From: a virus
Lineage: Duplodnaviria; Heunggongvirae; Uroviricota; Caudoviricetes
Reading direction: 5' to 3' (one strand)
DNA: 64,000 bases
IMG/VR virus record: IMGVR_UViG_3300035501_000580
Shown: positions 12,787 through 59,896 of the stretch, one piece after another
Position numbering within the stretch: the first letter of the stretch is position 1
How the letters are laid out: each line of letters starts with the position of its first letter
Position numbers and translations under genes: made by a program
The notes under the pieces: model-generated
The model's input: only the letters and a program-made list of their open reading frames with translations
What the model was told of the DNA's origin: nothing
Databases searched by the model: none

Positions 12787-12861
12787 ATTTAATTTGTGAC
12801 TTCGGTGGGGATCGAACCCACGACCTTCCAGTGTTTAACCAGACGCTCTACCAGCTGAGAC
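12787..12861 (-). tRNA. tRNA, atypical (75 nt; anticodon arm TCTGG/TTAAACA/CTGGA, nominal anticodon AAA; irregular D-arm)
   Basis: reverse complement folds with 7-bp acceptor and T-arm GTGGG-TTCGATC-CCCAC; anticodon arm identical to tRNA at 13197..13268. Confidence 0.55.
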
Positions 12862-12961
12862 GTACGAAGTCAATCAATGCTATCTCACGACATGATGATT
12901 ATTTGTGTGTAAAAATTTAAATTCTATAAGAATAATTTAAAAAAATTAGTAAAAAACTCTG

Positions 12962-13034
12962 TGACTCCGGTGGGGCTCGAACCCACGACCCACTGATTAA
13001 GAGTCAGTTGCTCTACCAACTGAGCTACGAAGCC
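12962..13034 (-). tRNA. tRNA-Lys(CTT)
   Basis: cloverleaf: D-arm GCTC-AGTTGGTA-GAGC, anticodon loop CTCTTAA, T-arm GTGGG-TTCGAGC-CCCAC. Confidence 0.85.
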
Positions 13035-13196
13035 TAATCAATCATGTCTCACGACATGATGATTTTCTCTCTCTCACTTAATAAATAATTTATTTATAAA
13101 TCAAAAACTTATATACAATGAAAAAAAAATAATGTACTAAAAAAAAACACTTACTATGGTTATGTCTCACGACATAAAAGCATCAAATGAAAAAGT

Positions 13197-13268
13197 AACT
13201 CCGATGGGACTCGAACCCACGACCTTCCAGTGTTTAACCAGACGCTCTACCAACTGAGCTACGGAGTT
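13197..13268 (-). tRNA. tRNA, canonical 72-nt cloverleaf but anticodon loop TTAAACA (nominal anticodon AAA, C at position 37)
   Basis: perfect D- and T-arms; anticodon stem needs two G.U pairs; isotype uncertain (Phe-like?). Confidence 0.65.
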
Positions 13269-37952: not shown

Positions 37953-38158
37953 TTTTTATAAATGTGAAGTTGAATTATTAAGATGATATAAACTACAACG
38001 GATCCCCAAGAAAAGAGTGACATTATAAAGTGAAATATCAAATCACGTTGTATGTTTTTGAACCTAAGAGATGATTTTTTGTAATCACTCAATATGATAT
38101 GGATAGTATAAAGTCCAAGACAATATGCTACTAAAATACCTAAAATATATCCTATCAT
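37949..38158 (-). CDS. small 2-TM membrane protein (69 aa)
   Basis: two hydrophobic helices; translationally coupled to upstream NTase (ATGA overlap). Confidence 0.45.
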   Translation of the reverse strand: MIGYILGILVAYCLGLYTIHIILSDYKKSSLRFKNIQRDLIFHFIMSLFSWGSVVVYIILIIQLHIYKN

Positions 38159-39429
38159 TTCTGGTTGAATTTATTTCGTGCATATAACAGGAGGTCATTT
38201 ACCATATCAACAGAAATCTCATCAGGAATAACAGATTTAGATATTTCTTCATCCATTTGAGATTTAAGTTCTGTTAGTTTAGACATCAACTCATCATAAG
38301 TATATTTTCTATTTCTAACATCAAGGAGAAAATCAGCATCAATTCCTCTACGGTCAAGTTTAAGTCCTTCACCCTTAGCTACTTCAATCGCCATAGAAAT
38401 CAGACGGAAACAGTGACACATATTCTTAGCATCATAGAACTTCGCTGAGTTTTCTTTTTCGAGTCCTTCAAGGTTGTTTTCATACCGAGCTTTGTTACGG
38501 TTTTTCTTCCAATCCTCATACTCACGATATTTCTTACAATGTTGTCTATAACCATTTTCATTGTAAGACATATAACAAATAGGTGTAGAACCTTTTAATG
38601 TTTCTGAAAAACGGATTTCATTACTTGAACCCACATTAGAAATGATACCGCAGTGTTTACCAAAAGGAGTTTTAATTTTTTCATAAAGATTTTTCATTAC
38701 CCAAGACCATTTCATTTCGGTCTGGTCAAATTTAGATGTTAAAGTTGTATATACATAGTTCAAGAATTTGTCATTACGATTTTTTTCGTCGGTGAAAAAT
38801 TCTTTTGTGATACCATTTAGTTCAATGTGTTGACCAAAGTCATAGAACACATCAAACATATTAGGCATATTGGGCACATTTACCAATCCACAGTTACTTT
38901 GGTCAAGACCTCGTTCACTGAGCCAAGTTTGAATGTTTTGACTACCCTGTCCCTTAAAAGTATAACAAAAATCGAGGGGAGTCTTTCTAACCATCTTCTC
39001 AATGTCCCAGTGAATTTTCTTATCTTGTCCCTGAGCCTTTTTAATCTGAGACACAGCATAACCACCAAAAGGCATGAAACATTGTTTGGTGATGAATTGG
39101 TCACGATACTTTTTGATATTCGTAATGATGGGGTGTTCATACAAGACCTTATCATCAGGAACGAACAGGGCTTCCAATACAGTGGGGTTAGATGATAGGA
39201 GTAGTCTCATGAACTTACCTATCTCCCACCAACAGGTATCATGTTTCTCATCACAGATTTCATTCTGGTAATCAAAACCAAGGTCAAGAAGTTGATTTGA
39301 GGGAGCGATATAGATACCACCTTCATCAACGTCACTTGTTTCGACATTGGTACCATAGACCTGTGAACCCCTTATGTAACGATATAAGAGAAGTCCTTTA
39401 TCTTCTATGTCTTTGAATGTTAGTTTCAT
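38155..39429 (-). CDS. pol-beta-superfamily nucleotidyltransferase, 424 aa (OAS/cGAS/DncV-like arrangement GS.VYGT-N5-SDVDEG)
   Basis: N-terminal RGSQVYGTNVETSDVDEGGIYI signature. Confidence 0.55.
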   Translation of the reverse strand: MKLTFKDIEDKGLLLYRYIRGSQVYGTNVETSDVDEGGIYIAPSNQLLDLGFDYQNEICDEKHDTCWWEIGKFMRLLLSSNPTVLEALFVPDDKVLYEHPIITNIKKYRDQFITKQCFMPFGGYAVSQIKKAQGQDKKIHWDIEKMVRKTPLDFCYTFKGQGSQNIQTWLSERGLDQSNCGLVNVPNMPNMFDVFYDFGQHIELNGITKEFFTDEKNRNDKFLNYVYTTLTSKFDQTEMKWSWVMKNLYEKIKTPFGKHCGIISNVGSSNEIRFSETLKGSTPICYMSYNENGYRQHCKKYREYEDWKKNRNKARYENNLEGLEKENSAKFYDAKNMCHCFRLISMAIEVAKGEGLKLDRRGIDADFLLDVRNRKYTYDELMSKLTELKSQMDEEISKSVIPDEISVDMVNDLLLYARNKFNQK

Positions 39430-48753: not shown

Positions 48754-48838
48754 GGGATTCGAACCCCCGGACCAATAATGGCCAACGGTTTTCAAGACCG
48801 CCGCAATCGACCACTCTGCCACCTCTCCAAAATTTGTT
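48754..48838 (-). tRNA. tRNA-Ser(TGA), class II
   Basis: anticodon loop CTTGAAA, long variable arm, T-arm GGGGG-TTCGAAT-CCCTC. Confidence 0.85.
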
Positions 48839-49398
48839 TAACCAAATTTTTTAATTGTATCTTGAACTCGATTTAACCAACCTGTCAAGAATTGTTTTTG
48901 TGAAGGATTTTTAGCAACATTATCCTTATATCTTTGGATTCTTTGATTACCTAATTCCTTCGCAATTTCATCTTTATGAACTCCATTAGCATATGAAATT
49001 GTTGTTTGTCCAATCTTACCATCTACAACAATATTCACCTTACATACTTTATTTATGGCTTGTTGTAATAATTTAACTGAACCTACACAACCACTATTTA
49101 CTGCATGATCATATAAATGAGCTGAGATTAATAAAGAATCAAAACTATCAATCTTCATAGTGTTATAAAAATTAGTGAGATAAAATTCCTCTACTAATGT
49201 TTGTAATTGTAGATTGTTTATTTTTTGATTCCATTTTAGAGGTTTATTCTTATCTACAATACTCCATCCAGACCACTTAGGCCAATTCTTTCTGGAAATA
49301 CCACAGTAAGTTTCTCCACCTCTATCTCCTTTTACATTTGCATATCCACCTTCAATAGTTAAAGTTGCGTCAATAATTTGTTTCGCTTTGGTTGTCAT
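48838..49398 (-). CDS. endolysin-type lysozyme, glycoside hydrolase family 108 with C-terminal PG-binding-like domain (186 aa)
   Basis: N-terminal EGGYANVKGDRGGETYCGIS = GH108 hallmark EGG(Y/F).N...D.GG.T..GI. Confidence 0.75.
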   Translation of the reverse strand: MTTKAKQIIDATLTIEGGYANVKGDRGGETYCGISRKNWPKWSGWSIVDKNKPLKWNQKINNLQLQTLVEEFYLTNFYNTMKIDSFDSLLISAHLYDHAVNSGCVGSVKLLQQAINKVCKVNIVVDGKIGQTTISYANGVHKDEIAKELGNQRIQRYKDNVAKNPSQKQFLTGWLNRVQDTIKKFG

Positions 49399-49780: not shown

Positions 49781-49853
49781 GGGACTCGAACCCACGACCC
49801 CCACATTAAAAGTGTGGTGCTCTACCATCTGAGCTACGGACCCCAACCTAATG
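49781..49853 (-). tRNA. tRNA-Lys(TTT)
   Basis: anticodon loop CTTTTAA; canonical D and T arms. Confidence 0.85.
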
Positions 49854-50441
49854 TTTGTCTTTTATTGTCCATGTGATATTTCTACCAAAACCTCTATTCG
49901 CTCCTTTATATGTAGAAGTGAGTGAGTGACAATTTGGACAAACCAATCTTAAATTATTCTCAGAGTTATTTTCTGAGTTTCCATCTATGTGATCGATTTC
50001 TAAAGGAATAGTGTTTGTATATGGGTTTACTTTTGACCAACCACATTCACAACATTTATAATCAAACTTTTCAAATATATAACGTCGTAATTGCTTAGGT
50101 AATTGTCCCCATTTTGTTGACTTAGCGATTGAGTTATCTAATTTGTAATGTTCCACCCACTGTTTATATTCAAAGTCCTGTTGACATTTATTTGAACAAT
50201 ATTTACATCCGGACTTTATTTCTTTTCCACAATATTTACAGTAGGTTTTCTTACCTTGACCTTTATTGACAGGTTGTTTTCCTGAGTTTTTAGACCGAAC
50301 AGGTAACTCAAAACCTCTATTCCTCATTACTTTCTTGATATTGTTACCAGAACATCCAAATAGACGACCAATTTCCTCATAAGAAAGTTTATCTACAAAT
50401 ATATATCTCTTTAATATGTCAATGTTCTCAGTCCAATCCAT
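49848..50441 (-). CDS. HNH homing endonuclease (197 aa)
   Basis: C..C zinc pairs and PLEIDHIDGNSENNSENNLRLVCPNCHSL. Confidence 0.75.
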   Translation of the reverse strand: MDWTENIDILKRYIFVDKLSYEEIGRLFGCSGNNIKKVMRNRGFELPVRSKNSGKQPVNKGQGKKTYCKYCGKEIKSGCKYCSNKCQQDFEYKQWVEHYKLDNSIAKSTKWGQLPKQLRRYIFEKFDYKCCECGWSKVNPYTNTIPLEIDHIDGNSENNSENNLRLVCPNCHSLTSTYKGANRGFGRNITWTIKDKH

Positions 50442-50614: not shown

Positions 50615-51313
50615 TTAAGTTCTTTCTTGTTTAGATGATTGAGATGTTTTCAAGATAGAAGCGTCATACATTTCAGGAGAAGTAATAATATCTCTACCTC
50701 TACTTGGTGCATTATTCTTCATATTATCTAACATTGATTGAAATTGTGATTTTCTATCATCACTTGTTTTCAATACATCATCTCTTTCACCACTGGAAGC
50801 CAACTGATAAACTGTATTAGGAGCACCTGATTGAACAGTTCTTGAAGATGCACTATTATATACATTAGAACTTCCAGATAAATAATCAGTTGTTGTAGTA
50901 GGTATGGTAATGTTAGTATTTATTACGCCATTATATCTAAAAAAGTGTATAGTTGTCGTACCTAAACTCGCATATACCATTACACTATTTTGTTTGAAAT
51001 CTGATATCCATTGACTACCAGAATACATACAAATATGACCGGGAGCACTTTGGTTGTAAGTAGGTTTCATATATACTGCAATATCACCGGGTTGAGGTGT
51101 ATATGTACTGGCATTACTACTACTCATCTGGGCAACTTCATTAAAACCTATTGAGGGTAAATAATTAATATATTTCCAAGCCCAGTCAGGTCTTCCTGAT
51201 GTGGATAACCCTCCAGATTCAATGGCCATTCTGACATACTTCGCACACTTACCTTGTGATTTAACAGAGGCTCTACTTGCTAATGAATTTACACATTTTT
51301 GTAAATCAAACAT
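50615..51313 (-). CDS. CHAP-domain peptidoglycan hydrolase with S/T-rich C-terminal region (232 aa)
   Basis: Cys block GKCAKYVRMAI and His block GDIAVY ... GHICMY. Confidence 0.65.
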   Translation of the reverse strand: MFDLQKCVNSLASRASVKSQGKCAKYVRMAIESGGLSTSGRPDWAWKYINYLPSIGFNEVAQMSSSNASTYTPQPGDIAVYMKPTYNQSAPGHICMYSGSQWISDFKQNSVMVYASLGTTTIHFFRYNGVINTNITIPTTTTDYLSGSSNVYNSASSRTVQSGAPNTVYQLASSGERDDVLKTSDDRKSQFQSMLDNMKNNAPSRGRDIITSPEMYDASILKTSQSSKQERT

Positions 51314-52303: not shown

Positions 52304-52771
52304 TCATAATTTCAATAGACCATTATCAAATTCCCAATGATGATTAGGACACAAACCAATTAGATTGTCCGGGTTATTTATTTCTGATATTGGAGTGTCA
52401 TCACTAAACTCTGAAACTGGTTTAATGTGAGCTACCTCAACATGATTTGTATAACCACATATTTCACATCTATAAGGTTTATTTGATTTCATGAATGATT
52501 TTCTGGCAAGTCTTGTGATAGAACTTCGAGCGGATTGCCAATTTTTTCTATTTTTGAATAAATCACCTTTTGTTTGGATAGATATTGGAGTTTTAGTTTG
52601 ACTTTGTGGTTCAGGTATCATCAGGTCTTTACATCTTTTTTTGATGGATGTTTTGACATTTGATGACATCGGATATACATAACCAAATCTATAACTTAAA
52701 TCTTTCCATGTAGATGATGTCAAAATAATTTCAGAAAACTGTTCATCATCAAATGAATCTAAATTAGTCAT
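52304..52771 (-). CDS. HNH homing endonuclease (155 aa)
   Basis: CEICGY ... AHIKP ... NLIGLCPNHH. Confidence 0.7.
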   Translation of the reverse strand: MTNLDSFDDEQFSEIILTSSTWKDLSYRFGYVYPMSSNVKTSIKKRCKDLMIPEPQSQTKTPISIQTKGDLFKNRKNWQSARSSITRLARKSFMKSNKPYRCEICGYTNHVEVAHIKPVSEFSDDTPISEINNPDNLIGLCPNHHWEFDNGLLKL

Positions 52772-55098: not shown

Positions 55099-55524
55099 TT
55101 AAATATTTATGATTTTCTCAAACGAAAAATCTTCGTAATTCAAAGGTTCATATTGGTTATGTGTTTCCTTAAATGGTACATTAACCTTTATGGCATTTCT
55201 ATTTTGAAGTTTCTCGATAGGTATTAACATCAATATTTTAGATTCTACATTATAGATTGAAAAATAATCAATGTCATTACAATCATATTTTTTAAAGTAG
55301 TTGTGACCATTCCTAATAGTTCCACTTCTTAAATCTACGGTAAAACCATCTTTCTTCATTTTATATGAAGTTTTAACCTGTATTTTATTAAGTTTACCAT
55401 TAAATTCGGCTATCAAATCAGCACTTTCATTGTCACCAAATGGGATATAAACAGGAACTCCTAACTCCACGAATTTGGTTAATGTAATTGCTTCTCCAAT
55501 ATTTCCAACTCTTTTACTCTGCAT
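55099..55524 (-). CDS. putative PD-(D/E)XK-type nuclease (possible homing endonuclease), ~141 aa from Met at 55524
   Basis: GEAITLTKFVELG ... PFGDNESADLIAE ... KIQVKT resembles D..E.K restriction-fold core; start trimmed to avoid tRNA-Pro overlap. Confidence 0.4.
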   Translation of the reverse strand: MQSKRVGNIGEAITLTKFVELGVPVYIPFGDNESADLIAEFNGKLNKIQVKTSYKMKKDGFTVDLRSGTIRNGHNYFKKYDCNDIDYFSIYNVESKILMLIPIEKLQNRNAIKVNVPFKETHNQYEPLNYEDFSFEKIINI

Positions 55525-56253: not shown

Positions 56254-56524
56254 CCAAGGAATTGAACCTTTGTGGTTGAAAAATGTCTAACCACCTACGA
56301 CCTCCGGAGAGTCATCCCTATTACCAAACAGGGCAAGAACAGACAAGTGACCATTGTTTTGGTACAATGGAGAAAACCCGTACAAGGCTACCAATTAGGC
56401 GGCGGCGTACATGACCTTTTCGGGTCGTGAAAAATTGTTGCCAGTTAAATAGGCCATAGACTTCTCCTTCATTCCTACTCATATGTCATCAATACCAGTC
56501 ATCCCCTTATATTTATTTTACTTT

Positions 56525-56560
56525 GTGGAGATGGTGGGGATCGAACCCACGTCTAACATA
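56525..56560 (-). pseudogene. tRNA 3'-half fragment (variable loop + T-arm GTGGG-TTCGATC-CCCAC + acceptor CATCTCC-A)
   Basis: no matching 5' half (GGAGATG) nearby. Confidence 0.4.
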
Positions 56561-56589
56561 CTTTCTTAATATTATCAACAAAATCTATA

Positions 56590-56663
56590 GTGGTCCGGAT
56601 AGGGCTTGAACCTATGACCTTCTGATTATGAGTCAGCTGCTCTAACCAACTGAGCTACGGGAC
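56590..56663 (-). tRNA. tRNA-Met(CAT), second copy (distinct sequence; elongator/initiator/Ile2 not resolvable)
   Basis: anticodon loop CTCATAA, T-arm ATAGG-TTCAAGC-CCTAT. Confidence 0.8.
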
Positions 56664-56858
56664 CGAAATACAAAGTTCAATAAATGGATATGAGTTATAA
56701 TGAGTTGCAATAAATTGCGGTATGAACTTTTATGTATTTTAATGAAAATTAATAGACGAATTTATCAAGATACTATCACTCTATGGCAGAGGATTATTGC
56801 GGTCTGTATCTTTATTTAAGTTTCAACAAATTAAATATAACAAAATGATTTCAATTTT

Positions 56859-57317
56859 CTACTTTTTTGTCAATTTTTCTTTGACTATTTGAGAAGCCAT
56901 TGCACCATCAACTTGACCTGTATAAGTTTTGTTGATGTATCCCATGACTTTTCCCATACCTGACATATCCGTTACTGAAAAATCTGAAATAACTTGGTCA
57001 ACGATTTTTTCAACTTCATCTACTGTCAACATTTTAGGGAGATATTCACTAAGGACACGATATTCTCTGATTTCCTTATCCGCTAATTCAGGTCTATGAT
57101 TAACTCGATAAATTTCACAAGTTTCCAGACGGGACTTAGCTAACTTTTGAATAATCTTAATAATGTCTTTATCATCAGGATTTTTATTTCCATTCTTAGC
57201 TGTTTTCAATTCCATGATAGATGTTTTGATATTACGAATTGTATCTGCTCGTAATTCATCTCTGGATTTGATAGCTTCCATTAAATCCTTTTGAAGTTTT
57301 TCTTCAAGAGTGTTCAT
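56859..57317 (-). CDS. YqeY/GatB-C-terminal-domain-like protein (152 aa)
   Basis: LEEKLQKDLMEAIKSRDELRADTIRNIKTSI ... LSEYLPKMLTVDEVEKIVDQVISD ... MGKVMGYINK ... GQVDGAMASQIVKEKL aligns along whole length with YqeY family. Confidence 0.65.
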   Translation of the reverse strand: MNTLEEKLQKDLMEAIKSRDELRADTIRNIKTSIMELKTAKNGNKNPDDKDIIKIIQKLAKSRLETCEIYRVNHRPELADKEIREYRVLSEYLPKMLTVDEVEKIVDQVISDFSVTDMSGMGKVMGYINKTYTGQVDGAMASQIVKEKLTKK

Positions 57318-57589: not shown

Positions 57590-57624
57590 TGATCCGGATG
57601 AGATTCGAACTCATGACCCACAGT
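57590..57624 (-). tRNA. 3' exon of split tRNA (anticodon 3' stem ACTGT, variable GGGTC, T-arm ATGAG-TTCGAAT-CTCAT, acceptor CCGGATC-A)
   Basis: pairs perfectly with 5' exon at 58245..58283 across a 620-bp interruption. Confidence 0.6.
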
Positions 57625-58244
57625 TTAGCATACTACTCTATATTTCTATAGCCAATATTATTAATATTGTTGTAGTCTGGACTTTGTCTTCACCATTTCA
57701 GGTAGGAGTGCGTAAAGTCTCTACGGAGTCTCTTATAAGTAAGTTCCCTCGGCGTTTTCTTCATCATTATATTGTGTATAACATGCTAAGACGTTCACCG
57801 ATATAGCACTCTCCAGTTTATGTGTTAATCCATGATGTTGTATTTCAACAGATAATTTACCTCTACACTTACGTGAACAACAAGTACAATTTAGTTTACT
57901 TGGTTTTTGTAAGTGTGTTTGTCGTTTTTCTCTGATAAATATTTCACCACACCACGGACATTGTAATTTTACCATTTGTTTACCTTTTAATAAACCATGT
58001 AATTTACAATGTTCTTTATTCACCATAACTTCAAGATTTTCTATACGATTATCTTTCTTATTATGATTTTTGTGATGAACAACTTCATTACTATTCAAAA
58101 CTCGACCAAGATAATTTTCCATAATTACTCTATGTTCTAAAACATATCCAGCATCTGATGCGTTTGGATGTTCAGGACATAATACATAATTGTAATCACC
58201 TTTACTTATAACTTTTTGAATATTCCACATAAACGCTCCTATTA
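57625..58244 (-). mobile_element. ~620-bp intervening element inside tRNA anticodon loop carrying HNH endonuclease ORF (candidate group I intron or HEG insertion)
   Basis: exon halves on both sides; SD AGGAG + ATG begin 3 nt and 17 nt (respectively) after the anticodon loop. Confidence 0.5.
57733..58230 (-). CDS. HNH homing endonuclease (165 aa) encoded within the tRNA-interrupting element
   Basis: SNEVVHHKNHNKKDNRIENLEVMVNKEHCKLHG (HNH) and C-terminal CPWCG ... CTCCSRKC zinc module. Confidence 0.7.
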   Translation of the reverse strand: MWNIQKVISKGDYNYVLCPEHPNASDAGYVLEHRVIMENYLGRVLNSNEVVHHKNHNKKDNRIENLEVMVNKEHCKLHGLLKGKQMVKLQCPWCGEIFIREKRQTHLQKPSKLNCTCCSRKCRGKLSVEIQHHGLTHKLESAISVNVLACYTQYNDEENAEGTYL

Positions 58245-58283
58245 TTCAAAGACTGTTGCTCTATCCAACTGAGCTACCGGACC
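58245..58283 (-). tRNA. 5' exon of split tRNA (acceptor GGTCCGG, D-arm GCTC-AGTTGGATA-GAGC, anticodon stem ACAGT + loop CTTTGAA; nominal anticodon TTG)
   Basis: reverse complement of 58245-58283. Confidence 0.6.
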
Positions 58284-58994: not shown

Positions 58995-59065
58995 TTTAAT
59001 TACACTACAAAGTTACAGGTTTTTCTCGACATAACCAAATTTTAAATGTTAATTATTTGTTAATT
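58995..59065 (-). promoter_or_regulatory. conserved promoter unit
   Basis: attacactacaaagttacaggtttttctcgacataaccaaattttaaatg. Confidence 0.65.
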
Positions 59066-59896
59066 TTTTGATGATGATAGTATTTGTTTCTCTATCAGTT
59101 TATATGACCTAAAAAACATATATGGGAGGATATTCAAATCAGAAAAACCATATGTTCCGCACGAAAAAAAATCGTGAACTTCAATAGGAACAGTGGATTC
59201 GTCTTTCAATACCGCAACATCCAAAGTATATTCTCTGAGATAGGGGATATAGGCTGACAATACATCTATCATTTCTTTGATTATATTGACATCAGGGAAT
59301 ACAGTAAAATCACCTGAGTAGTTTTGAAGTCCACTTAGTTTTTGATTATGGATAAAACAACGATACTCAGATACTATTTCTTTATCACCTATCAGTAACT
59401 CGCTAATTTGGACAGTATATTTATTATCGAAGTAATCTCTAATCTCATAGTCATAGTTTTTACCATTTGATTCGTCTTTAATGAAATGGTTAGACTTCGC
59501 GAATAGAGGTTTTTTATTATATACTGAACTGGGATAGACATTTTTAACCACTCTCTTAGCATAGTTAAACAAACATTCTGGGAGGTTTCTTGGTTGAATA
59601 TTTACATCTACATCGAGTTTAACATATTCAGACATATATTTTTTAAGGAATAATGTGACAAACTCGACGGAACCAATAGGGATAACTCGTTCGATATCAC
59701 ATTTACAAGTTAGTATATCCAATTCATTCAGTTCATCAAATGTACAGAAAGTTGTTCCCATTGAATCTGGAACACACCAATTTTGATATTTCACAGCATT
59801 GACAAGTTCCAGTTCAAAGTCATATATCACCTGATTAGTTTCCGGAGATACTTGACATAAAAACAATATAAAATCACTCTTTTTCTCCATGATCAA
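59060..59896 (-). CDS. hypothetical protein (278 aa), possibly ATP-grasp-like
   Basis: weak; segment ISELLIGDKEIVSEYRCFIH reminiscent of ATP-grasp central strand. Confidence 0.35.
   Translation of the reverse strand: MIMEKKSDFILFLCQVSPETNQVIYDFELELVNAVKYQNWCVPDSMGTTFCTFDELNELDILTCKCDIERVIPIGSVEFVTLFLKKYMSEYVKLDVDVNIQPRNLPECLFNYAKRVVKNVYPSSVYNKKPLFAKSNHFIKDESNGKNYDYEIRDYFDNKYTVQISELLIGDKEIVSEYRCFIHNQKLSGLQNYSGDFTVFPDVNIIKEMIDVLSAYIPYLREYTLDVAVLKDESTVPIEVHDFFSCGTYGFSDLNILPYMFFRSYKLIEKQILSSSKN

Follow-up and report, generated by a model that had tools for sequence, protein, structure and literature searches.

A probable mobile group I intron with an embedded HNH endonuclease gene in a phage tRNA-Arg(UCU) gene

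The window analysed here is a stretch of 64,000 nucleotides (nt) from a virus of the Caudoviricetes (IMG/VR record IMGVR_UViG_3300035501_000580). At positions 57,590-58,283, within an island of tRNA genes, a minus-strand tRNA-Arg(UCU) gene is interrupted between nt 34 and 35 by a 620-nt insert. The insert very probably represents a mobile group I intron from the IC3 lineage of tRNA introns. It carries a gene for an HNH protein of 165 amino acids (aa). We infer splicing and homing from the sequence. An earlier note on the same DNA had proposed an anticodon-loop group I intron with a homing-endonuclease gene, and this is supported by the splice-site features, covariation of the core, homology to IC3 introns and an allele of the same phage with an empty site. 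Such introns are a well-known type of selfish element, of which we found almost no reports in phage tRNA genes. New here is the presence of the known IC3 tRNA-Arg(UCU) lineage in a phage, with an HNH_3 gene embedded in the P2 element.

Results

A tRNA-Arg(UCU) gene split in the anticodon loop

The two minus-strand tRNA halves described in the earlier note, 620 bp apart, are present in the sequence. The minus strand at 58283-58249 reads GGTCCGG-TA-GCTC-AGTTGGATA-GAGC-A-ACAGT-CTT, and at 57628-57590 it reads CTAA-ACTGT-GGGTC-ATGAG-TTCGAAT-CTCAT-CCGGATC-A. All of the seven acceptor-stem and five anticodon-stem pairs that had been proposed across the gap form, with one acceptor pair, G2.U71, as a wobble. 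The gene consists of the following parts.

58249..58283 (-): 5' exon of tRNA-Arg(UCU) (sequence; ARAGORN on the ligated exons; same letters in contig L171)
57629..58248 (-): group I intron, 620 nt (stretch absent from L171; covariation of the core; profile match to published IC3 Arg(TCT) introns)
57590..57628 (-): 3' exon of tRNA-Arg(UCU) (sequence; ARAGORN; L171)

The 5' exon contains tRNA nt 1-34, namely the 5' strand of the acceptor stem, the D arm, the 5' strand of the anticodon stem (ACAGU) and C32 U33 U34. It is 35 nt long because the D loop has one extra base. The 3' exon continues with C35 U36 A37 A38, the 3' strand of the anticodon stem (ACUGU), the variable loop, the T arm, the 3' strand of the acceptor stem and the discriminator A; CCA is not encoded. 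A20 and C35, which are arginine identity elements, can be read directly.

To place the junction, the two halves were joined at every plausible pair of positions and the products were submitted to ARAGORN. Several joins give a 74-nt tRNA, and CTT/TGAAT...GTATG/CTAA (slashes mark splice sites) is the sole junction that leaves U as the last base of the 5' exon and G as that of the intron. The intron then starts with UGAAU and ends with GUAUG, the terminal G lying at 57629. The CTT/CTAA join (construct a58249_b57628) yields the loop CUUCUAA and is called by ARAGORN as a 74-nt tRNA-Arg(tct); the predicted ligated junction reads ...GUCUU-CUAAACUG.

The earlier note had taken CTTTGAA as the tRNA loop and 57625-58244 as the intron. 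Both were in error by a shift of 4 nt, which leaves the length of 620 nt intact, and the true position is fixed by the empty-site allele described below. The tRNA is Arg(UCU) and not Gln because of this shift. The Gln-UUG reading is rejected: its intron would lack both the preceding U.G pair and the final G, the ARAGORN calls in the window already include a tRNA-Gln(UUG) but no Arg tRNA, and the empty site fixes CTT/CTAA.

ARAGORN reports 22 tRNAs and one transfer-messenger RNA (tmRNA) over the window, with no other Arg tRNA among these calls. Neither ARAGORN, with its intron mode on or off, nor the Rfam tRNA model called the split tRNA-Arg in the window. AGA is the commonest Arg codon, constituting 42.5% of Arg codons in the 54 long open reading frames (ORFs) of the window.

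The same phage without the intron

A 1.8-kb metagenomic contig from run SRR11794476 (L171) was found through an exact copy of the 174-aa protein encoded upstream of the tRNA. In L171, the upstream 174-aa gene and the downstream YqeY gene are 620 nt closer than in the window. With 57629-58248 removed, the window aligns to L171 over 581 nt with no internal gaps, 3 mismatches and 99.5% identity. L171 contains the predicted 74-nt tRNA without a single difference, and ARAGORN calls tRNA-Arg(tct) at 736-810 of the contig. The boundary of the intron cannot slide, because the bases on either side differ, and both of its ends coincide exactly with the group I 5' site and the terminal G.

L171 represents the phage of the window in a different sample; this phage exists with the intron (window, L168-L170) and without it (L171). 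This is the uninterrupted allele that the earlier note had proposed to look for in related phages. A related-locus search with the upstream 174-aa protein returned no relatives in IMG/VR; the exact-protein lookup gave L171. The uninterrupted junction GAGCAACAGTCTTCTAAACTGTGGGTC also occurs in 13 other IMG/VR contigs, in unrelated contexts.

The insert folds into a group I ribozyme core

The fold of the insert was derived from the related loci described below and assessed on a MAFFT alignment of 22 sequences, from which the interior of the L2 loop was removed where an ORF is present. It comprises the following elements.

58236..58241 (-): internal guide sequence UAGGAG (sequence; exon/guide covariation in the relatives L010, L001 and L025)
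58226..58234 (-): P2 5' strand GUUUAUGUG, pairing with 57816-57824 across ~400 nt
57816..57824 (-): P2 3' strand CACAUAAAC, inside the ORF, where it codes for part of a conserved ...GLTHK... segment
57725..57811 (-): P3 5' strand and P4-P6 domain (helix coordinates; covariation per helix; alignment of L025 to RF00028)
57811-57806 (-): P3 5' strand GAGUGC, then J3/4 UAUAU
57800-57796 with 57754-57750 (-): P4 CGGUG/CGCCG
57791-57758 (-): three-part hairpin P5/P5a/P5b
57748-57725 (-): P6 and P6a
57680..57724 (-): catalytic centre (invariant columns; a compensated P7 pair; alignment of L025 to R and S of RF00028)
57719-57714 with 57685-57680 (-): P7 GACUUU/AAAGUC, with J6/7 GUAGA
57711-57706 (-): P3 3' strand GCACUC, crossing P7 as a pseudoknot
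57704-57691 (-): P8 UACC-UGAAAU-GGUG, with J8/7 AAGAC
57632..57676 (-): P9 three-way junction (covariation; minimum-free-energy fold)

The P1 U.G pair, P7 and the terminal G, for which the earlier note had suggested looking, are all present. The 5' splice site follows U34, which forms the U.G wobble with the guide in P1. A single guide sequence, 8 nt into the intron, forms both P1, in which GAG (58238-58236) pairs with the exon end CUU (58251-58249), and P10, in which UAG (58241-58239) can pair with CUA of the 3' exon (57628-57626). The P1 columns are 86% paired, and the intron-final column is G in 22 of 22 aligned introns. The guide changes together with the exons: in L010 the exon CCU faces the guide GGG, and in the Ile-type introns of L001 and L025 the 3' exon AUA faces UAU. 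An alternative guide, either of two GAGACU copies located ~500 nt downstream and perfectly complementary to AGUCUU, was rejected because these copies are P6a/P6 and J6/7-P7 and because UAGGAG covaries with the exons.

The covariation extends over the entire fold. Over 71 pairs and 22 sequences, 91.0% of cells are paired, compared to 35-45% when the partners are slid by 1-3 columns, and both partners have changed in 41 of the 71 pairs. The slid versions reach a covariation score of at most 0.107, versus 0.376 for the actual fold, and none of 500 shuffles reaches any observed measure. The strands of P2 are ~400 nt apart in the ORF-bearing copies, yet all nine pairs show compensatory changes and 92.4% of cells are paired. 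Compensatory changes are also found in four of five pairs of P9 (ACUAC/GUAGU), five of seven of P9a (CAAUAUU-AAU-AAUAUUG) and all five of P9b (CUAUA-GAAA-UAUAG), which is capped by a GNRA tetraloop. No helix of the derived fold contains a mismatch in the window copy.

Little or no variation is seen in the columns CCGUAGAGACU and CCUG..AUGGUGAAGA.A.AGUCCAG, in the R element, GUAGAGACU...ACGC, or in the S element, GAAGA.A.AGUCC. P7 of the window has a U-A pair in place of the usual A-U, with both sides changed. Rfam model RF00028 places P3, P4, P6, R, P8 and S of L025 as in the derived fold: its segments equivalent to P3, P4 and P6 align to the same helices of the model, and its R and S elements align to GUUCAaAGACUAAAcG and AAGAUAUAGUC. 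ViennaRNA, given the 694-nt precursor alone, recovers the acceptor stem, P2, P3, P4, P5, P6a, P8, P9, P9a and P9b (z=-4.8).

The endonuclease gene is embedded in the ribozyme

57733..58230 (-): HNH_3 homing-endonuclease ORF, 165 aa (ORF list; Pfam PF13392; position of the stop)

The AGGAG and ATG that the earlier note had seen opening a 165-aa HNH ORF are found here. The ORF is intact and full length. It matches Pfam HNH_3 over residues 33-74 (45.1 bits versus a cut-off of 24.8, E=7.5e-12), and 14 PHROG families match, 13 of which are annotated as HNH endonuclease. Six intron-encoded homologues, with 54-62% identity to the protein, all retain residues H52, H53, N61, N65, H74 and H78 and a Cys-rich module; other phage HNH_3 genes are more distant. 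The identical 165-aa protein is found on 9 contigs from several samples. Sequence and profile searches for relatives with a solved structure found none, returning weak zinc-finger-like noise only.

The ORF fills the loop of P2 and then reads through the P2 3' strand, P3, J3/4, P4 and P5 into P6, with its UAA stop in the P6a loop. Its final 31 codons therefore also encode the ribozyme core. The non-coding 3' tail is 104 nt long, where ~108 nt had been estimated, and the core extends beyond it, as the final 93 nt of the ORF overlap the region from the P2 3' strand to P6.

At the other end of the gene, the Shine-Dalgarno sequence AGGAG (58240-58236) overlaps the GAG of the guide, and the AUG (58230-58228) is located within the P2 5' strand. 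It is possible that ribosome initiation and the folded ribozyme exclude each other as a consequence of this arrangement. One may tentatively go further and propose that the endonuclease gene has co-opted the guide as its Shine-Dalgarno sequence and P2 for its start codon, creating a built-in switch that commits the precursor either to tRNA or, whether ahead of excision or following it, to endonuclease; we regard this as a speculative reading. If true, it would be a switch between serving the phage and spreading, kept across the phage tRNA-Arg intron family, whose core is present in at least 33 IMG/VR contigs. No description of this family was found in the literature searched.

Relatives in viral contigs

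IMG/VR was searched for relatives with the pattern CCGTAGAGACT-N(8-22)-TGGTGAAGA, which gave 33 loci, nearly all of them tRNA-Arg(UCU) genes split at CTT/...G/CTAA. The same HNH ORF is present in 15 of the 33 loci and can be read full length in 10. Ten loci have an ORF-less intron, two (L017, L026) have an ORF remnant only, two (L015, L019) have a different ORF in P6 and four are cut by the end of the contig. Homologous ORFs occupy the same P2 loop in at least 10 other viral contigs. L026 and L017 have near-identical ribozymes and exons with an 18-codon remnant of the ORF, and the ORF of L007 ends early at 134 aa. In L015, a PDDEXK_5 gene is located in P6 instead, as in published bacterial Arg(UCU) introns. 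Full ORF, remnant, ORF-less and P6-gene states represent the usual life cycle of a homing-endonuclease gene.

L026 and L017 match the window in the tRNA-Arg exons, apart from one difference in the D loop, and almost completely in the intron, while their flanking genes differ, which suggests that the tRNA together with its intron moved between phage backbones. P3 of L017 differs from that of the window in three pairs, all of them compensated (GGACGC/GCGUCC versus GAGUGC/GCACUC).

The 3' non-coding tail also has a blastn match in an uncultured 485-kb phage, to an ORF-less insert of ~215 nt at the same loop position of another tRNA. Among GenBank phages, a megablast search with the region gave no match, and blastn gave only HNH-domain matches and LR745208. 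The 62-nt consensus core was found in only two of them, the uncultured ~485-kb phages LR745208 and LR756508; in LR745208 it is located in a tRNA with a UAU anticodon.

Other host tRNAs are seen in the same intron family. In L001 (LR745208.1, 1392-1678) and L025 (~1460-1750) the intron occupies the same loop position, and ligation would produce the loop CUUAUAA (UAU, Ile-type); in its P10 part the guide reads UAU in place of UAG, matching the 3' exon AUA. A third host tRNA is found in L010 (IMGVR_UViG_3300025867_000006, 545-815 and 2334-2589), where the exon is CCU, the guide GGG and the 3' exon GUAA. Its ligated loop, CCUGUAA, is odd and Thr-like, with C at position 33. The copy at 545-815 also occurs in a Bacteroidales metagenome-assembled genome (L089), and the L010 contig carries a second, unrelated group I intron above the Rfam gathering score, at 72 bits. 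Beside the intron-bearing tRNA of L025, at 1772-1860, there is a borderline Rfam tRNA (29.0 bits) whose anticodon arm contains 26 inserted nt; it may be another interrupted tRNA.

A bacterial IC3 lineage and other known systems

The core motif is found in more than 120 bacterial genomes. Ten of 12 sampled bacterial copies, from Bacillaceae, Exiguobacterium, Saprospiraceae, Chitinophagales, Gammaproteobacteria and Acidobacteriota, align through the core and keep the ...G/CUAAG 3' junction of tRNA-Arg(UCU); in several of them P6 carries an ORF. The remaining two are L089, identical to the viral L010 with its Thr-like junction, and L084, which matches poorly.

A 2026 survey in mSystems lists 'Arg (TCT) 34/35' introns from Bacillota and Bacteroidota and classes them as IC3 (PMC13011429). 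A hidden Markov model of the phage core, run with nhmmer, matches the published IC3 Arg(TCT) introns over the whole core, with E=7.1e-33 for GCF_000246855.1 and 4.6e-26 for GCA_001586195.1. The IC3 introns of tRNA-Asn, tRNA-Leu and tRNA-Lys give E-values of 1e-16 to 1e-9, a published Leu(TAA) intron gives 1e-13, and an IA1 intron matches as a 22-position fragment only. Because the match to the published introns covers the full core, we assign the ribozyme, by homology, to the published IC3 tRNA-Arg(UCU) 34/35 lineage; the IC3 label is inherited from these relatives.

The phage intron shares with the bacterial IC3 Arg(UCU) introns the tRNA, the insertion point CUU/CUAA, the guide uAGGAGc, the P2-P9 layout with the P9 three-way junction and the GAAA loops. 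Major differences can also be observed. The bacterial introns are chromosomal and are ORF-less or carry a PD-(D/E)XK gene (PF11645) in P6. The window copy is found in a phage tRNA island, has an HNH_3 gene in the P2 loop that runs from the guide and P2 into the core, is very A+T-rich and escapes Rfam.

The cyanobacterial and plastid tRNA-Leu(UAA) intron is likewise located in the anticodon loop, at 34/35 (PMC13011429). A short P1 leaning on the anticodon stem is a further common feature (Zaug et al. 1993, cited in PMC3984707). The stretches GUAGAGACU and GGUGAAG..A.AGUCCAGAC are shared with the classic IC3 introns of tRNA-Leu(UAA) and of Azoarcus tRNA-Ile. Unlike the window copy, in which L2 holds ~400 nt of coding sequence, these introns interrupt a different tRNA, are ORF-less and have a small P2 with a tetraloop.

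Endonuclease genes are present in only 12 of 333 bacterial tRNA introns of the survey; HNH-encoding introns are described in tRNA-Asn of Patescibacteria and tRNA-Leu of Bacteroidota (PMC13011429). The Synechocystis tRNA-fMet intron encodes I-Ssp6803I, a PD-(D/E)XK enzyme (PMC3984707). Common to these cases and the window is a group I intron in a tRNA anticodon loop with an endonuclease gene targeting the anticodon region. They differ in occupying other sites or tRNAs, the tRNA-Asn intron being of subgroup IA, and all are bacterial and not from phages.

Phage group I introns with homing endonucleases are known from td, nrdB and sunY of T4 and from SPO1 and Twort, with the HNH enzymes I-HmuI and I-TwoI, and phage HNH intron enzymes are typically nicking enzymes. 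As in the T4, SPO1 and Twort cases, the window has a phage-borne intron with an endonuclease gene in a peripheral loop, a type of element that spreads between co-infecting phages. I-PfoP3I is also a phage intron homing endonuclease (PMC3428280). Unlike the intron described here, the T4, SPO1, Twort and I-PfoP3I introns interrupt protein-coding genes. A 2014 review noted that, although phages have many tRNA genes, the phage introns known at that time were all located in protein genes (PMC3984707).

Devoto et al. reported unclassified 'enigmatic' tRNA introns in Lak megaphages as a first for phages (10.1101/356790). In both cases, phage tRNA genes contain conserved inserts overlooked by bacterial tRNA finders. 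No intron class was given to the Lak inserts, and eukaryotic tRNA rules were used to predict where they end, whereas class, ends and empty site have been established for the window insert. In T4, segB is a free-standing GIY-YIG homing-endonuclease gene in the tRNA cluster that drives preferential inheritance of the region (PMC2330249). Here too a homing endonuclease resides in a phage tRNA island; segB lies between genes, whereas the window ORF is inside an intron inside a tRNA gene. Our literature search gave no paper on group I introns in phage tRNA genes; its coverage was incomplete, and one may exist.

Alternative explanations

Several observations weigh against a mobile group I intron. 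P1 has just three exon pairs and P10 is weak in many relatives, so the splice sites carry little sequence evidence of their own. Short P1 and weak P10 helices are usual for tRNA introns. Part of the core is also coding, and the protein could account for some of the conservation. The comparison with a group I covariance model that the earlier note had called for matched nothing on the window: RF00028 gave no hit there at the gathering score or at E<=10, and none on the close ORF-deleted relative L026. The ORF-less L025 (29.1 bits, E=2.5e-4, aligned end to end) and L001 (23.3 bits, E=0.03, aligned full length) do not reach the gathering score of 50. That Rfam misses the window copy is probably due to the ~400 nt inserted in L2 and to the low G+C content. 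Finally, the presence/absence polymorphism could reflect precise loss instead of gain.

This last point is part of a view in which the intron splices while the HNH protein, inactive or serving another role, no longer supports homing, and the polymorphism arose by precise loss or ordinary recombination. The protein may then aid RNA folding or cut tRNA-Arg genes of competitors or of the host. The endonuclease genes are indeed decaying in relatives (the remnants in L026 and L017, the 134-aa ORF of L007), the protein has no relative of solved structure by sequence, and the target, AGAGCAAC.G.CUUCUAA.C.GUGGGUC, is also found in bacterial tRNA-Arg(UCU) genes. Against this, the window ORF is full length, its catalytic HNH residues and Cys-rich module are invariant among the homologues, and the exact protein recurs on the nine contigs. 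The same ORF, loop and intron in many unrelated viral contigs form the pattern expected of an active mobile unit. We therefore consider loss of homing improbable.

The earlier note had also considered that a free-standing endonuclease gene had inserted and killed the tRNA, leaving two halves of a pseudogene that are never spliced. ARAGORN and Rfam both fail to recognise a tRNA or a group I intron at the locus, and the same island has several free-standing nuclease ORFs between its tRNA genes. The insert is nevertheless more than an ORF: the gene lies inside a full, conserved ribozyme with covarying helices, which ends exactly at the U.G site and the terminal G, and ORF-less relatives keep both the ribozyme and intact exons. 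A dead tRNA-Arg(UCU) gene is unlikely in itself, because the exons match the uninterrupted allele without decay, the tRNA is the sole one for Arg called in the window and AGA is the top Arg codon. Taken together, we regard this explanation as very unlikely.

A group II or protein-spliced (bulge-helix-bulge) tRNA intron, a type brought to mind by the eukaryote-type rules used for the Lak megaphage introns (10.1101/356790), has a negligible probability, given that the insert is not at the canonical 37/38 site, that there is no reverse-transcriptase ORF, that Rfam gave no group II match and that the R and S elements, the P3/P7 pseudoknot, the U.G site and the terminal G are group I features.

Proposed mechanism

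For the mobile group I intron, we propose the following course of events. The tRNA island would be transcribed from the minus strand, and the anticodon stem would draw the two splice sites together. The guide UAGGAG and the exon end CUU would form P1, with U34.G at the splice site, and free guanosine bound in P7 would attack after U34. The terminal G (57629) would then take the place of the guanosine while P10 (UAG/CUA) aligns the 3' exon, leading to ligation of the exons. The 74-nt product would gain CCA post-transcriptionally and read AGA. The 165-aa HNH enzyme could be translated from the precursor or from the excised intron. It would cut or nick intron-less tRNA-Arg(UCU) genes of co-infecting relatives near CUU/CUA, and repair off the intron-bearing genome would copy the intron into the cut allele.

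The tRNA island

The tRNA genes of the island are interspersed with three further nuclease ORFs, which resemble free-standing homing-endonuclease genes.

49848-50441 (-): 197-aa ORF with a weak HNH/HNH_3 match (E~1e-4, below the Pfam cut-offs)
52304-52771 (-): 155-aa HNH_2 ORF (E=4.6e-13)
55099-55524 (-): PDDEXK_5 ORF (E=1.6e-23), wedged between tRNA-Pro and tRNA-Asn with few nt to spare

The PDDEXK_5 family is also the one found in P6 of related tRNA-Arg introns; the window copy is only 20% identical to the intron-borne one of L015. The island also contains a permuted tmRNA in the region 56304-56664 (-), placed at 56395-56585 by Rfam (RF04321, 60.7 bits) and at 56304-56615 by ARAGORN, with the tag GNNFSRPEKVMYAAA. 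The ARAGORN call overlaps a tRNA-Met call at 56590-56664. Cell-wall hydrolase genes are found within the island at 48838-49398 (-), with GH108 and PG_binding_3, and at 50615-51313 (-), with a weak Amidase_5/CHAP match.

A second, small tRNA cluster at 12797-13268 (-), far from the main island, contains a tRNA-Lys(CUU), a tRNA with the unusual anticodon AAA (called as Phe) and a third tRNA seen by Rfam only (12797-12871, 39.8 bits). Around the main island, genes at 38155-39429 (-), 56859-57317 (-) and 59060-59896 (-) encode a nucleotidyltransferase (phrog_388), a YqeY/GatB-like protein and an R2K-clade ATP-grasp protein. The nucleotidyltransferase may be a CCA-adding enzyme, which would be relevant to a tRNA-Arg without an encoded CCA.

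Discussion

The mechanism proposed here is an ordinary one in an under-reported setting, and it leaves the knowledge of how group I introns or homing work unchanged. A single ribozyme scaffold accommodates endonuclease genes of two unrelated kinds, HNH_3 in the P2 loop and PD-(D/E)XK in that of P6. Nature also provides matched alleles, with intron and gene, with intron and gene remnant, and with the empty site in the same phage, which allow direct tests of splicing, of homing and of a possible competition between translation and folding.

The bacterial IC3 tRNA-Arg(UCU) intron lineage circulates in phages. Because the intron core is present in at least 33 IMG/VR contigs and two huge-phage records, and the split tRNA is missed by ARAGORN and Rfam, the tRNA repertoires of phages are under-counted. 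Ordinary group I introns are probably among the 'enigmatic' tRNA introns of huge phages.

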